Part shown: one piece after another, positions 16,863 through 50,292 of the stretch | How positions within the stretch are numbered: the first letter of the stretch is position 1 | Layout: each line of letters begins with the position of its first letter | NCBI GenBank assembly: GCA_030446505.1 | Contig: JAUJND010000004.1 | Span: 9,099-73,098, forward strand | Direction of reading: 5' to 3' | DNA: 64,000 nt | DNA from: Chroococcidiopsidaceae cyanobacterium YX2bin18 | GTDB taxonomy: Bacteria > Cyanobacteriota > Cyanobacteriia > Cyanobacteriales > Chroococcidiopsidaceae | Notes under the pieces: model-generated | Databases searched by the model: none | Seen by the model: only the letters and a program-made list of their open reading frames with translations | Told to the model about the DNA's origin: nothing | Position numbers and translations under genes: made by a program

Positions 16863-17165
16863 ACAATCCCGTTTGAAAGCAAGCAACGCAACACCGCCAA
16901 AACCGAGGAAGTGAAATTTTATAATCATGGCTGGGGCTGCTTACTAAAAGGCGATCACCTGGAACGCAAATTACAGTGCTATAACTTCGATCTGATGAAG
17001 TCAGAATTCCTGAGTTAGATTCGAGCGTTGGTTCCGAAGCGAGGACGAAGCGCGGTAAGCGAAACCATGCCGAAGGCGATTTGCCTTTGGCAGTACCGCT
17101 TGGTATCGCCACCATCAGCCATGGTAGAGTCGAGGGCGGGTATTATCCCGCGCCCCTCTCTGTTA

Positions 17166-17199
17166 GATCCGTGCGTAAAACTTTCGCCTTACACGGCTC
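17166..17199 (-). ncRNA. Group II intron domain V
   Basis: Minus strand reads GAGCCGTGTAAGGCGAAAGTTTTACGCACGGATC: a 34-nt hairpin with the AGC triad and a GAAA tetraloop, as in the domain V consensus. Confidence 0.8.
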
Positions 17200-17371
17200 C
17201 CGATTCAATTAGGCAGTGCCTTTGCTCATGTGTATGTAATCGTGGCAGGACTCGTGTAGAGCTTCCAGATTATTTAATTTCCAGTTGTGTTGGTTTCCGT
17301 CCTTGTGATGCAAGTTAACTTGCTCCTCGGAGAGTTGTCTTTAGTCCACATCTAGCACATGAATGGTTTTG

Positions 17372-42815: not shown

Positions 42816-42861
42816 AATCTTGCCTTGGTGTCTAAGGCGCAACGTCGCTGGCGGAACGTTT

Positions 42862-44169
42862 ATGAAAATCATTGCCTACTCCTATAGTGATCCTCTGTTG
42901 GAACAAACACCTAACCCTGCTGTTTGGGGTTGGGAAGTGGAGCGGATTTATCAAGATTTGGGGAAACGCGAGGAGCTAGAGCAGCTAGTTTGCGATTGTC
43001 AAATAGAGCCAGCTGATTACCTTTTAATTCGGCGGCTAGATGAACTAGGAGATTCTCTACAGGAAGTAAGTTCGCGCATTGCTGAATTAGAAGCGCTAGG
43101 AGTTCACCTGATTGCCACTGAACAAGCCTACAACTCATTTGCTCAGGGGCAAGATCCTACTAATTTCCGGGCAGATTTGCTCCTGCTGCTGCAAGAAATC
43201 CAGCGTGAGCAGCGTAGCCGCCGCATTCGCCAGGGACACGCCCGCAATCGGATTAGCGCCTTGCCACCCCCTGGAAGATCACCCTACGGCTACCGCCGAG
43301 GCAAGGATAAATATGCACTTGATCGCAGTGCTTCTCCAATAGTCAAGGATTTTTTTGAACAGTTTCTCCTCTATGGCTCTTTGCGGGGAGCGGTTCGCTA
43401 TCTCGCGCAAAAATACGGCAAGAAAATTTCTGTATCGACAGGGCGGCGCTGGTTAACTAATTCTGTCTATCGTGGTGACACAGCTTATCAAAATGGTGAG
43501 GTTATCTCTAATACCCATGTCCCGATCATCTCTAGGGAAGAAGCAGCACAGATTGATCGGCTGTTGCGGCGCAACCGTCGCTTGCAACCTCGTAGTGCTA
43601 GTGCGCCTCGCTCTCTTGCTGGATTAGTTATCTGTCAAGAGTGCCAGTCGCCGATGACAGTGGTTCGCGTTACTATTCGACACAAAAAAAACGAATATCT
43701 CTACTTACGTCCAATCAACTGTCCTAAACGCCCCAAGTGTCGGGCAATTCCCTACGCGCAGGTGTTGGAGCAAACAATTAGAGCAATTTGCTGTGACTTA
43801 CCGCGTGCGGTAGCTGGAACAAATTTACCACAACTGGATGCAGTTAAGAGTTCTTTGACAGATGCGATCGCCCGACAGCAAGAAATACTCGCCCAATTGC
43901 CTACTTTGATTGAGACTGGAATTTTGGATTCAGAAACAGCGCAACTTAGAGCTTATAAACTCCGCACTGAAATCTCACAAATCCAAGCAAAACTAGCGAC
44001 TCTACCACCAGTGAATTTGCGTTCTGTTGCTCAAGCTGTCTCAATTCCCCAATTTTGGTTAGATTTATCTGAATCTGAGCGGCGATTTTACTTTCGGGAA
44101 TTTATTCGTCAAATTGAGATTATCCGCCAAGATTCAGTGTGGCAACTCCAACTTATTTTTATATTTTAG
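42862..44169 (+). CDS. Large-serine-recombinase homologue (resolvase-like N-domain, recombinase domain, zinc ribbon, coiled coil) with non-canonical catalytic positions
   Basis: Start MKIIAYSYSDPLLEQ. RRLDELGDS in place of the LDRLGRS block. GRSPYGYRRGKDKY and NSVYRGD (recombinase domain). CQECQSPM...CPKRPKC (zinc ribbon). C-terminal heptad-rich region. Confidence 0.65.
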   Translation: MKIIAYSYSDPLLEQTPNPAVWGWEVERIYQDLGKREELEQLVCDCQIEPADYLLIRRLDELGDSLQEVSSRIAELEALGVHLIATEQAYNSFAQGQDPTNFRADLLLLLQEIQREQRSRRIRQGHARNRISALPPPGRSPYGYRRGKDKYALDRSASPIVKDFFEQFLLYGSLRGAVRYLAQKYGKKISVSTGRRWLTNSVYRGDTAYQNGEVISNTHVPIISREEAAQIDRLLRRNRRLQPRSASAPRSLAGLVICQECQSPMTVVRVTIRHKKNEYLYLRPINCPKRPKCRAIPYAQVLEQTIRAICCDLPRAVAGTNLPQLDAVKSSLTDAIARQQEILAQLPTLIETGILDSETAQLRAYKLRTEISQIQAKLATLPPVNLRSVAQAVSIPQFWLDLSESERRFYFREFIRQIEIIRQDSVWQLQLIFIF

Positions 44170-45641: not shown

Positions 45642-46685
45642 TTACCCTAGTCTCAACATCCATTTTGCAAAGCTTTTCAAAAAACTATTGGGAGTTAGTA
45701 GTTGGCTCCACACCCAGCGGCTGAGCCAGCGATTGAACCGGGGTAGTAGATAGTCCCGCGATAGCTCCCAGATTACTATTATCAGTAAGGGCAACAACCG
45801 CATTTTTATTCCATCTAAAAAATCTTGCCGCTGTATTATTCCATCTAAAAAATCTTGCCATTGCCCTTGTCCTATATTTTTTAAACATTTAAGCTCTCTA
45901 CAAATCATGTTTAAATATTTAAACTCTCCACAAATCATGCCTAATGTAGGCATAACCCAAAAAAATACATCCAAGTAGTAGGTTGTACTAGTGTGGAGAT
46001 GCTGCAAAAGTTTATTAATTAGCCAGTGGTGAGCCGAGATAATCTCCCAACAGCGGGGGTAGTTGAGATAATCTTTACAAACCTGCTGAAATATATCTCC
46101 ATCTAAGGAAATTACTGTCCGCACAACCTTTGAACTACACTTATCCAGATTTAGTAGTCCCTGCTGGCTCTCTTCAGGATCAATGTAATAGTGAGTACAG
46201 AATGTTAGTCCAGATTGGAAATATACTCTCTTTACTTGCTTCTTTTTATTTAACCCATCCGCTAACAAAGCGTTCTGTCGCAAATTTGTAAGCAACTTGT
46301 TGGGAAGTTGCAGCTCGTAACGATTATTACGCGCCTGGTGAATTTGTTGCAGTCCTTCGTTAGTGAGATGGAAGATAAATTCTCCCTGTTCAAAGGTAAC
46401 GGTAATTTGCTCACTAGTAAGGTGAGTGTTTCTTGAGTGAGAAGGAATGGTATGGCGTAACTGTAGCCAAGTAGCTTGAATTGTCTGACGCAGGGTAGTG
46501 ATTGCTTTTAAGTTCCATCGCCTTATTACATAACGGAGGCTAAAAACAATTTGATTGATCAGCTTCAATACTGCTTTTACATCCAGCGATCGCACAGGGT
46601 TTGCAGAGGAGACAAAGCTGATTTGATATTTTATGATGCTCTCATCTTGGCGTGGTTTATTTTTGACCATTCTCAGAAGGTGCAA
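45642..46685 (-). CDS. Hypothetical protein (347 aa) with LDGDI motif, internal 30-bp tandem duplications and a hydrophobic C-terminus
   Basis: Intact ORF, last gene of a three-gene minus-strand operon. Motif RTVISLDGDIFQQV. Repeats QDFLDGI x2 and MICxEhKxL x2. No family recognised. Confidence 0.55.
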   Translation of the reverse strand: MHLLRMVKNKPRQDESIIKYQISFVSSANPVRSLDVKAVLKLINQIVFSLRYVIRRWNLKAITTLRQTIQATWLQLRHTIPSHSRNTHLTSEQITVTFEQGEFIFHLTNEGLQQIHQARNNRYELQLPNKLLTNLRQNALLADGLNKKKQVKRVYFQSGLTFCTHYYIDPEESQQGLLNLDKCSSKVVRTVISLDGDIFQQVCKDYLNYPRCWEIISAHHWLINKLLQHLHTSTTYYLDVFFWVMPTLGMICGEFKYLNMICRELKCLKNIGQGQWQDFLDGIIQRQDFLDGIKMRLLPLLIIVIWELSRDYLLPRFNRWLSRWVWSQLLTPNSFLKSFAKWMLRLG

Positions 46686-47478
46686 TTCCGTTAGAACTGC
46701 GTTGACTAGACTTACCCCAATTCACCATATTTTGTACAAAGTTCACCATAAAATCTAATAACTTGTGCCACTGTTGCCCTCCGGCAATCACTCCTTCATT
46801 GTGGATTTTCATGATTAGGTCTTTTACGTCTTCATCTTCCTGAAACAGTTGTTTATGGTAACGGGTGATGATATCTCCGTCTAACTGCATTACAGTTTGG
46901 GCATAAATAATATCAATTTTGTTCTCGCTAACCTTATCGCTATCGAGTGCAGCTTTAAGTTCAATAATTTTACGCAGACTGAGCAGGAATTCGTTAGCTT
47001 TAAAAATTTCTCGAATCTCCATCCAACCATTTACTTCCGTTGGATCGGGCAGTATTGGTCGAGCTAGTTCTATATAATCTGGATCAGACTCAACTATTTG
47101 TCCTTGATGTTGTTTTAACCATTCAATTCGCTCACCATATCTTTTCACCTTTTCATCCCGTACTTTAGAAAGTAGATTAGGAAGTTTTACATTTGGATCA
47201 ATAAGAGTGTAAAAATACTCTTTCTCAAGTTTTTCAAACAAATCTCTGTAACGCTTCTGTTGCTCTTTATCTTCAATTTCTTTTACCTTAAAGTAGTCTT
47301 TATCACTTATAGAGTAAATTGCTTGATATGCCTCCCAAGGACTGAACTTTGCAGCTGTAATTTTTTCTACAACCATAGTATTTACTTCTAAAGCTGTGAT
47401 GTCATTAAGTAACTCACCAATAGATTTCACAAATCTATCTAATAATTTTTCAGCTTTATCTTGAGTTTCATTAGGCAT
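46657..47478 (-). CDS. Hypothetical protein (about 273 aa) with LEVNT and LDGDI motifs
   Basis: Intact ORF (ATG 47478; GTG 47487 also possible). ITALEVNTMVVEKI near the N-terminus and AQTVMQLDGDIITRYH near the C-terminus. Overlaps the downstream ORF by 29 nt. No family recognised. Confidence 0.55.
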   Translation of the reverse strand: MPNETQDKAEKLLDRFVKSIGELLNDITALEVNTMVVEKITAAKFSPWEAYQAIYSISDKDYFKVKEIEDKEQQKRYRDLFEKLEKEYFYTLIDPNVKLPNLLSKVRDEKVKRYGERIEWLKQHQGQIVESDPDYIELARPILPDPTEVNGWMEIREIFKANEFLLSLRKIIELKAALDSDKVSENKIDIIYAQTVMQLDGDIITRYHKQLFQEDEDVKDLIMKIHNEGVIAGGQQWHKLLDFMVNFVQNMVNWGKSSQRSSNGIAPSENGQK

Positions 47479-47495
47479 AGCGATCACCTCTACGT

Positions 47496-47963
47496 TTACA
47501 GTTGTGTGGAACTGATCTTAGTTTGCTGTGAAGTTTTGCGAGATTTTTCTAACATTTCCATCAAAACTTCAAACAACTTCTGTACACTCTCAATATTTTT
47601 TTGGATAATTTCACGACTTTCCTTAACCTGGCTTAGGTGGAAGTCCCGAAGTTCTGTGTAAGGTCCACTACTAAGAAATTGACTGCCAACTTCATTGTTT
47701 ATATCGCCGTCAATAAGATTAATCAAGGTATACATCCGATTACCTGATTTGATGCTTTCTGCCTCATTTGTTTCTAAACTACTTTGCCCATCAGATGGTT
47801 CAGAAACCCAAGTAGTAATTTCTAATTCAACAACTTCAACTAATGCCGTCTTGATAACATCAATAATGTTTTTAGCATCAAGGGGTCTTTTATCAGTATT
47901 AAGTTCCTTAAGTTCCTCTTGAAATTTTTTACTTGCTTTAGAAGCCTCTTCATTTGTTCCCAT
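47496..47963 (-). CDS. Hypothetical protein (155 aa) with LEITT and DGDI motifs
   Basis: Intact ORF, first gene of the operon. VELEITTWVSE and YTLINLIDGDINNEV have the same motif order as the next gene. No family recognised. Confidence 0.55.
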   Translation of the reverse strand: MGTNEEASKASKKFQEELKELNTDKRPLDAKNIIDVIKTALVEVVELEITTWVSEPSDGQSSLETNEAESIKSGNRMYTLINLIDGDINNEVGSQFLSSGPYTELRDFHLSQVKESREIIQKNIESVQKLFEVLMEMLEKSRKTSQQTKISSTQL

Positions 47964-48256
47964 GACAGTATTTCCTATGAAATAGTAAAATCACAATGAA
48001 ATTGAGTCCATGAAAATTTTACATAGTATTGAAAAACCTAATTATTTTATTAACTCAAAACAATTAATTTTAACAAAACTTAAACTTTTAATTAGAAGTA
48101 TCTGTATAAAGTTATGCATTTTCAGAGAGGATTTTAACCAGTGCAGCTAGCTTCGCTTTCCCTCCAAAAATGTCATATTTTTAGAGAAATGTGCGCTCTA
48201 GAGGCGATCGCATTTCTAAGTAATCTATACAGCTGCCCAGACTATAATTCCGGAAT

Positions 48257-49887: not shown

Positions 49888-50292
49888 TCAAGATTTTTCC
49901 GGTGGGTTTACTATATCTGTAACTTGTTCTAATAATCCCTCAAAAGGTTTCTGCTGAGGGTTTAAGCTTTCCATAGTGAGCACACTAACACCAAGGAGAA
50001 TAGCACTTCCTACAGCAATAATTACGGCAGGACGCTTAAAGATCCCGAAGTCACGGACAATCCTTGCCCAAGGTCTGCTTTCGCGGCGTAATACATGGGC
50101 GATCATTACCTGTTTACAGTTATGAGGATCACGGACGTAATGACCACTCCAGCTAACCACCAGGCGTTCCTGGCAATATGGACACGTAAATAGTCCATTG
50201 CACATCTTGAACGGCTTTAAGTTGCCGGTTCGTTGGCAAATTGGGCAAGTAACAGAATGATTACCAAAGGTGTGAGTGTTCATCAGCGTCAA
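49888..50292 (-). CDS. Hypothetical zinc-ribbon protein with one TM segment
   Basis: 134 aa; CPICQ...CPYCQ pair followed by the hydrophobic helix AVIIAVGSAILLGVSVL. Confidence 0.5.
   Translation of the reverse strand: MTLMNTHTFGNHSVTCPICQRTGNLKPFKMCNGLFTCPYCQERLVVSWSGHYVRDPHNCKQVMIAHVLRRESRPWARIVRDFGIFKRPAVIIAVGSAILLGVSVLTMESLNPQQKPFEGLLEQVTDIVNPPEKS

Follow-up and report, generated by a model that had tools for sequence, protein, structure and literature searches.

A conserved cyanobacterial gene triad orthologous to alr2558-alr2559-alr2560: three very probably paralogous proteins and their possible assembly at the membrane

Filamentous cyanobacteria constitute the main bacterial model of multicellularity, and they possess many conserved, lineage-specific genes that have received no name. 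Three described systems invite comparison with the genes studied here, namely prefoldin, a hetero-oligomer whose subunits are built of a helix, a beta hairpin and a helix; the nucleoid-associated proteins YbaB/EbfC, which display a helix, three strands and a helix; and PopZ-like hubs, which combine an oligomerisation domain with an acidic, proline-rich disordered region. The closest known counterparts are the genes alr2558, alr2559 and alr2560 of Nostoc sp. PCC 7120, a family which lies outside the known kinds by all the tests we ran, and which is present in databases only as hypothetical proteins. A literature search for alr2558/2559/2560 and for all2557/all2561 found no paper, and the text of a study on genes common to filamentous cyanobacteria contains no alr2558-alr2560 tags (Stucken et al., 2010; PMC2821919). 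In this work, we analyzed positions 45642-47963 of a 64-kb stretch of DNA from the Chroococcidiopsidaceae cyanobacterium YX2bin18 (contig JAUJND010000004.1; this whole stretch is hereafter the window), where three genes, here named A, B and C, are all encoded on the minus strand. On the evidence of sequence comparison, the three genes are real and make up a putative operon that is specific to cyanobacteria, has been inherited vertically and is orthologous to alr2558-alr2559-alr2560. The three genes are as follows:

47496..47963, minus strand: gene A, 155 amino acids (aa), putatively the minimal version of a domain shared by the three proteins; alr2558 ortholog
46657..47478, minus strand: gene B, 273 aa from its ATG; alr2559 ortholog
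45642..46670, minus strand: gene C, 342 aa (347 aa with a TTG start at 46685), fast-evolving and putatively membrane-associated; presumed alr2560 ortholog

An earlier description of this locus, made from its letters and open reading frames (ORFs) and hereafter called the sequence-only reading, had reported three packed minus-strand ORFs with a gap of 17 nucleotides (nt) and an overlap of 29 nt; ORF listing recovered this arrangement, with no rival long ORF on the opposite strand. The longest ORF of B opens with a GTG at 47487 (276 aa); the ATG at 47478, which has GAGG ahead of it and yields 273 aa with a 17-nt gap from the stop codon of A, is most plausibly the start of the gene. For C, the reported length of 347 aa holds for the longest ORF, which opens with the TTG at 46685 and overlaps B by 29 nt, whereas the alignment with C orthologs (MKTSRPKSD... 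vs MVKNKPRQD...) leads us to favor the ATG at 46670, with a protein of 342 aa and a 14-nt overlap. The operon-like character proposed for the triad was also borne out, as tight spacing or the B-C overlap is present in all the loci.

Database searches retrieved 163 homologs of A and 464 of B, with best matches at E-values down to 1e-52 and 1e-86, respectively, and these homologs are unnamed or labelled 'hypothetical protein', save for a few evidently automatic names (ClpS, CheZ, J-domain). When one genome per GTDB species was scanned, a relative of B was found in 188 species, and the best 80 loci were analyzed. Gene A is located upstream of B in all 80, and a homolog of C was detected by tblastn directly downstream of B in 78/80 Nostocales loci, the contigs of the two loci lacking C ending just past B; together with the triads of other cyanobacterial orders described below, these loci answer the question, raised by the sequence-only reading, of whether A, B and C co-occur elsewhere. 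Identity to the Nostoc-type orthologs is 55-65% for A and 47-62% for B. The matches of C range from 1e-5 to 1e-14 by tblastn and from 1e-27 to 1e-29 by hidden Markov model (HMM) against non-Nostocales C proteins, its identity to Nostocaceae C proteins is 20-32%, and a word-indexed search returned C itself only. The rate of evolution is much higher in C than in the other two genes, and the ORF, motifs and hydrophobic C-terminal half of C are maintained despite this divergence.

The cluster of B homologs includes alr2559 of Nostoc sp. PCC 7120 (BAB74258), and that of A homologs includes BAB74257, which is adjacent to alr2559 and corresponds to alr2558; given the A-B-C order beside these two genes, C is presumed to be the ortholog of alr2560, with ackA next. 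The PCC 7120 genes and their orthologs display the same gene order and the same motifs as the window, and differ from it in the A-B gap (17 nt in the window vs ~100-150 nt in the Nostoc-type orthologs) and in C, the window protein resembling the C of non-Nostocaceae lineages, which is shorter and has roughly two segments, and not the Nostoc-type C. In most Nostocales the cluster sits between ackA and an ftsH-side conserved block with the order ftsH, class-IV aminotransferase, GNAT and a divergent TPR-like gene. The window triad has other neighbours than the Nostocales triads, and the closest relative of B, which is metagenomic and belongs to a three-gene form, again has different ones; since the neighbours differ between loci, the conserved unit is the module and not its surroundings. 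There is a single copy of the module, which is inherited in a core-like manner. Four loci labelled as other lineages carry Nostoc/Anabaena-type triads with typical Nostocaceae spacing and a B protein 47-52% identical to that of the window, namely the metagenome-assembled genomes (MAGs) of L056 (Acetobacteraceae), L012 and L079 (Chroococcales) and L016 (Leptolyngbyaceae), and these contigs probably come from Nostocales and were mis-binned or mislabelled.

The motifs quoted by the sequence-only reading were all found in the three proteins, and their coordinates were assigned as follows:

47805..47828, minus strand: A motif 1, ELEITTWV, predicted strand 1 (50-sequence alignment)
47700..47717, minus strand: A motif 2, LIDGDI, turn joining predicted strands 2 and 3 (50-sequence alignment)
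47368..47394, minus strand: B motif 1, ALEVNTMVV (60-sequence alignment)
46870..46884, minus strand: B motif 2, LDGDI, inside IYAQTVMQLDGDIITRYH (60-sequence alignment)
46092..46106, minus strand: C motif 2, LDGDI, with AHHWL 21 residues beyond the motif

In the A alignment, L47, I49, T51 and V53 of motif 1 are invariant, and conservation reaches at least 90% at E46, T50 and W52; motif 2 is directly followed by a conserved NEVGSQFxGxGPYxELRxFH, the complete second block of the family being (R)MxTxINLiDGDIxNEVGSQFxGxGPYxELRxFH, with G86, I88, N90, E91, G93, Y102 and E104 invariant. In the B alignment, the invariant residues are D26, I27, A29, L30, E31, N33, T34, M35 and V37 at motif 1, which is retained in the Leptolyngbyaceae, Symploca and Coleofasciculus orthologs, and Q194, T195, Q198, D200, G201, D202, I204, R206 and Y207 at motif 2; the blocks of this family are DITALEVNTMVV and IYAQTVMQLDGDIIxRYH, then H226, and a helical insertion of ~140 aa separates the two motifs. 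The C family alignment conserves LQsGlTFNsYY, GDI.hKI, HYWL.EQ.L and the hydrophobic segments after them; its first block is weaker (aDv.Ls...qIPQg) and is followed by vLQS.i.L.GDI.hKI...HYWL, with only the GD(I/V) of motif 2 conserved across the family. The motif blocks are the best-conserved portions of each of the three families, and the invariant kernel is G-D-(I/V) behind a hydrophobic strand, not the whole LDGDI, the first Asp being variable in C and in A (DGT, SGD, NGD, EGD).

A, B and C very probably share a diverged homologous core, that is, they would be diverged paralogs. Once lineage-specific insertions were removed, comparison of the cores by hhalign gave P = 7.5e-4 (A-B), 6.6e-3 (A-C) and 8.9e-5 (B-C), and for each pair the observed score exceeded those of 150/150 column-shuffled controls (z ~3.5, 4.0 and 6.3). 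A and B carry two separate blocks in identical order, and the alignment of the second block spans ~36-38 columns in all three pairs, up to a conserved His; a His is located 24-26 residues past the first Asp in A, B and C. Furthermore, the A HMM at E <= 10 against 2608 ORFs matched 62/73 B proteins and 11/2378 unrelated ORFs, while the B and C HMMs weakly match the DGDI block of distant representatives of A and of a fourth paralog, A', described below. Pairwise BLASTP among the three proteins yielded nothing significant, and no natural A-B or A-C fusion was present among 165 representatives. The proposal of paralogous domains with variable insertions, made in the sequence-only reading and sustained here by the core comparison and its shuffled controls, is the better-supported part of that interpretation. 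The predicted core would consist, in this order, of an N-terminal helix, a strand (ELEITTWV or ALEVNTMVV), a loop or insertion that varies, a strand-turn-strand wrapping the (D)GD(I/V), and a long C-terminal helix beginning near the conserved His. A would then represent the bare domain, B the domain with its helical insertion between the blocks, and C the domain with an insertion of its own, followed towards the C-terminus by hydrophobic segments and the basic tail.

The AlphaFold2 (AF2) model of A, built from the 50-sequence alignment, has a predicted local distance difference test score (pLDDT) of 76 and contains helices at residues 7-20 and 30-44, strands at 46-52, 76-82 and 88-92, and a helix at 103-153; the two motif blocks form a three-stranded sheet, with a disordered variable loop between strands 1 and 2, and the model ends in this 50-residue C-terminal helix. 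The AF2 model of B (60 sequences; pLDDT 68) displays the insertion, residues 45-180, as a confident helical bundle with pLDDT 80-95, and the motif segments, residues 23-42 and 183-208, are the least confident (pLDDT <50) though the most conserved, which is suggestive of segments that may fold only against partners. AlphaFold and Foldseek had been recommended for all three proteins by the sequence-only reading; A and B were modelled, and Foldseek gave nothing at E <= 0.001 for the A model against PDB and BFVD or for the B model against PDB. Ranked third for the A model is 1ybx, of the YbaB family (E = 1.4, probability 0.12, template modelling (TM) scores 0.24/0.35). YbaB/EbfC proteins have the same order of elements as A, and they were rejected as relatives, with P = 0.5 in the hhalign comparison of the A and YbaB alignments and no YbaB match in Pfam.

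Membrane association was predicted for the third protein in the sequence-only reading, together with a hydrophobic, Trp-rich tail, and this prediction agrees with the two hydrophobic segments and the basic tail found in C:

45927..45980, minus strand: C hydrophobic segment 1 (YYLDVFFWVMPTLGMICG), aligning with the hydrophobic block of C orthologs
45762..45803, minus strand: C hydrophobic segment 2 (MRLLPLLIIVIWEL), Kyte-Doolittle 1.51 over 19 residues
45645..45731, minus strand: C basic, Trp-rich amphipathic tail (RWLSRWVWSQLLTPNSFLKSFAKWMLRLG), conserved in non-Nostocaceae C orthologs

The tail pattern LP...RW..R.L..LL......A..L is common to the non-Nostocaceae C orthologs, and the number of hydrophobic segments is 3-5 in most Nostocaceae C orthologs and ~2 in the window protein. 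These features support C as the likely membrane-associated member of the triad. Strongly hydrophobic segments are absent from A and B, which are presumably cytoplasmic. The window C also carries two in-frame tandem 30-nt duplications, at 45880-45939 and 45798-45857, which encode GEFKYLNMIC/RELKCLKNIG and QDFLDGIIQR/QDFLDGIKMR and constitute an insertion between the hydrophobic segments that is missing from all the C orthologs aligned; the first of them was confirmed by Tandem Repeats Finder and the second was read from the translation.

Outside the Nostocales, five loci display the four-gene order A-A'-B-C, with sizes of 142-147 aa for A, 507-961 aa for A', 262-291 aa for B and 233-295 aa for C. 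The A' genes are located as follows:

L081, 2943-5828: A' between A and B, non-Nostocales cyanobacterium
L082, 8602-10236: A' between A and B, non-Nostocales cyanobacterium
L084, 1489-3012: A' between A and B, non-Nostocales cyanobacterium
L085, 6532-8064: A' between A and B, non-Nostocales cyanobacterium
L086, 2561-4396: A' between A and B, non-Nostocales cyanobacterium

A' consists of an A domain followed by a highly acidic, Pro/Ser-rich disordered tail of 400-800 aa, and its similarity to A inside the same cluster (E ~1e-41) proves that A and A' arose by tandem duplication of the A domain. The clusters of Leptolyngbyaceae, Symploca and Coleofasciculaceae comprise the same A, B and C families as the window, in the same order and with the same tight spacing, plus A'; the latter is absent between A and B of the window and elsewhere in its 64 kb, and the Nostocales are likewise without it. 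Searching 1.84 billion representative proteins with the A profile gave 690 matches at E <= 1e-3, most of them 350-1700 aa long with the A domain at the N-terminus (residues 8 to ~120). Beyond this domain, their tails are of low complexity and Ser-rich, with 28% Asp plus Glu, 10% Pro and a net charge of -0.24 per residue; some contain scattered L-x-x-LF-(G/A)-(D/E)-like motifs, and the ends are often poly-Pro or DPFADF. The named proteins with an A domain are all cyanobacterial (Funiculus, Trichocoleus, Coleofasciculus, Leptolyngbyaceae, Elainellaceae and Xenococcaceae). PopZ-like hubs resemble A' only, in combining a small oligomerisation-type domain with a long acidic, Pro-rich disordered region; the order of the domains is reversed, and the likeness is one of composition, not of sequence relationship.

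With these elements, we propose, at a probability of roughly 0.45, that the triad encodes a cytoplasmic hetero-oligomer of paralogous subunits, membrane-anchored by C and with a scaffolding role. The short gaps and the B-C overlap would allow the subunits to be made in fixed proportion; A, B and C would associate through their shared strand-plus-helix core, giving a hetero-oligomer on the cytoplasmic face of the membrane with C as its anchor. Outside the Nostocales, A' would add its very long acidic, Pro-rich disordered tail, a condition taken as ancestral, and it is this tail that suggests a scaffold or recruitment platform rather than an enzyme, a toxin or a defence system. Indirect support for such a complex comes from the joint inheritance of the genes, their close spacing or overlap, the core common to their products and the hydrophobic segments of C. 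Prefoldin is alike in its general architecture, with long helices flanking a small beta element, and in having several paralogous subunits encoded together; it is unlike the triad in that it has no membrane-anchored subunit, and the A model gave no Foldseek match to it. Several results weigh against the proposed complex. Full-length hhalign comparisons are marginal (P = 0.011 for A-B, 0.03 for A-C and 0.0019 for B-C), with the expected motif blocks nonetheless aligned in every pair; neither B nor C is recovered with the wider profile built from A and A' (best E = 1.0 and 1.6); AF2 renders the motif segments of B as low-confidence helices, not strands, so that the shared fold is unconfirmed by structure; the hydrophobic segments of the window C are weaker than those of Nostocaceae C; and the invariant polar residues of A (E46, R76, N82, N90, E91, Y102, E104 and H109) might just as well belong to a site for ligand binding or catalysis.

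This last point leads to the main alternative, namely that the shared block would serve catalysis or the binding of a ligand or metal as a small site (DxD-like or acidic loop), the proteins then being subunits or isoforms of an enzyme or sensor, not a scaffold. The invariant polar and glycine-rich residues around DGDIxNEVGSQFxGxGPYxELRxFH of A and QLDGDIIxRYH...H226 of B, and the similar spacing of the His in all three proteins, would fit such a site; we hold it to be rather unlikely, as the first Asp is unconserved in C and variable in A, the domain is merely ~100 aa long and matches no enzyme family or fold, and the loop departs from EF-hand spacing. It is also improbable, in our estimate, that A, B and C are unrelated and carry a short convergent motif, e.g., a common docking peptide for one partner. 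The absence of significant pairwise BLASTP matches, the marginal full-length profile comparisons and the differing secondary structure of the A and B models at the motifs would all be expected under convergence, which is harder to reconcile with two separate blocks that A and B carry in identical order, a second block of this length reaching a conserved His in every pair, scores above all the shuffled controls, and the tandem duplication that produced A and A' in the same cluster.

A different explanation takes the triad as an AT-rich island from a mobile element, which would have been acquired horizontally as a defence, toxin or toxin-antitoxin-like cassette and would guard the cell from phages or kill its competitors; both the acquisition and the defence or toxin function had been suggested by the sequence-only reading. 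The AT-richness then noticed by eye is real: the triad has 37.5% guanine plus cytosine (GC) vs 43.9% for the whole window, it lies in the lowest 1% of 2.3-kb windows and is the lowest-GC stretch of the window. No known family is matched, the neighbours are unlike those of other Nostocales, and a large serine recombinase gene lies ~1.5 kb off, all of which would suit a mobile cassette. Yet the orthologous triads average 33.2% GC vs 41.5% in their flanks and are lower in 70/70 genomes, and the bias is seen at every codon position (GC at second positions, GC2, ~0.30; at third positions, GC3, 0.22-0.28; GC3 of ftsH and ackA, 0.37-0.41); this bias is a heritable property of the family. No triad homologs were present on 72,556 plasmids (PLSDB) or in 50,697 phage genomes (INPHARED), PADLOC defence models gave 0 families at E <= 1 and PHROGs noise only for A, B and C. 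The patchy distribution of an island or mobile element was not observed either, as the triad is near-universal in the Nostocales loci analyzed, with its order kept in 78/80 of them and housekeeping synteny in most, is present in other cyanobacterial orders and is inherited as a single-copy, core-like unit. Horizontal acquisition and a defence or toxin role find no support in these results, and we regard the mobile cassette as very unlikely. Finally, low GC and the lack of family matches could be taken to indicate spurious ORFs from AT-rich non-coding DNA, an idea left with a practically negligible probability by ORFs that are intact, with their protein motifs, across ~80 genomes of several orders at 25-65% identity.

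Searches against described families were in accordance with the earlier remark that no family could be recognized. Pfam, NCBIfam, PADLOC and PHROGs yielded sub-threshold noise only for A, B and C, as did Pfam for 50 A-family and 60 B-family members; no toxin or antitoxin domain exceeded the threshold in Pfam, NCBIfam or PADLOC for any of the three proteins, and the sequence profiles of A and B against PDB gave nothing under E = 0.3. Some specific candidates were considered and rejected. The Pfam Prefoldin model matched the C-terminal helix of A only, at 15.9 vs 23.2 bits (E = 0.013), and was found in 1/50 A-family members. The gas-vesicle proteins GvpA/J/M were weighed on account of the h-h-h-GDI strand, and Gas_vesicle was absent among the Pfam matches listed at E <= 1 for A, B and the 50 and 60 family members. 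The DGDI loop, as read from the sequence, misfits the spacing of an EF-hand, and a DxD glycosyltransferase motif was ruled out, its first Asp not being conserved.

A broader possibility, which we consider doubtful, is that A, A', B and C represent a new cyanobacterial fold and a scaffold of a new type, hetero-oligomeric and anchored to a membrane, in which the A' tail would recruit partners, and which would organise, in a role so far unrecognized, the cell architecture (septum, envelope or thylakoid) of cyanobacteria with a complex morphology. The named members of the family so far belong to Nostocales, Coleofasciculaceae, Symploca, Leptolyngbyaceae, Elainellaceae and Xenococcaceae. The family comprises three or four paralogs of a domain matching no Pfam or NCBIfam family, and A and B match no solved or viral predicted structure. 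If the complex forms as proposed, it would be a new cell-biological module with a genetic handle in Anabaena/Nostoc PCC 7120 (alr2558-alr2560); if it does not, a false call of horizontal transfer and defence is still removed, and the triad illustrates that a strong AT bias can be an inherited trait of a gene family. Its interest is moderate, as a well-conserved and genetically tractable module in a model multicellular bacterium.

The region upstream of A is shared with the neighbouring, divergently oriented gene:

47964..48256, no strand assigned: AT-rich intergenic region separating A from the divergent GT39-type gene, 30% GC

A promoter-like block that the Nostocales conserve upstream of A lies in this region, and the alignment of upstream regions displays shared TTGTTTTGA(C/G)TT, TTTCAA and TAAAAT blocks. 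The promoter-like block is located at 48010-48075 in the window and ~40-115 nt upstream of A in the loci L001-L080; it contains an ATTAAGT direct repeat with copies ~30 nt apart, and its Nostocales consensus is ATTAAGTTGTTTTGACTT..TTACTTTT.TTAAGTAAA...TTTCAACAT...TAAAAT. The 8-mers TATTAAGT and TTACTTTT are each present in 57/80 upstream regions, and the window retains TTGTTTTGAGTT, TTTCAATAC and TAAAAT. A GTA-N8-TAC (NtcA-type) pattern occurs in 33/80 upstream regions; LexA- and HetR-type patterns occur in 0/80 and DIF1 in 2/80, and no known regulator site was recognized in them.

Regarding the flanking genes, the sequence-only reading had named a GT39 glycosyltransferase and a PlsC-like acyltransferase; the former, divergently oriented, is a clear PMT_2/PMT (GT39-type) membrane glycosyltransferase, and the latter is borderline, with PF01553 at 22.7 bits for a cut-off of 23. 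Directly upstream of the acyltransferase-like gene, a large serine recombinase with Resolvase, Recombinase and Zn_ribbon_recom domains is encoded at 42820-44169 on the plus strand, ~1.5 kb from the triad. In the Nostocales, GC3 is also low in the divergent upstream TPR-like gene (0.23), but not in ftsH, ackA or the aminotransferase gene (0.37-0.41), so that A, B, C and the TPR-like gene make up a small patch of the chromosome that is stably rich in AT. Positions 49888-50292 of the window (minus strand), in convergent orientation to the GT39-type gene, encode a zinc-ribbon-like protein of 134 aa with two N-terminal CxxC pairs, a weak zf-Di19 match just under the cut-off and a hydrophobic stretch near the C-terminus. 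At 17124-17201 (minus strand), the window also contains an Rfam group II intron match (RF00029) of 54.3 bits that covers the complete 77-nt model.

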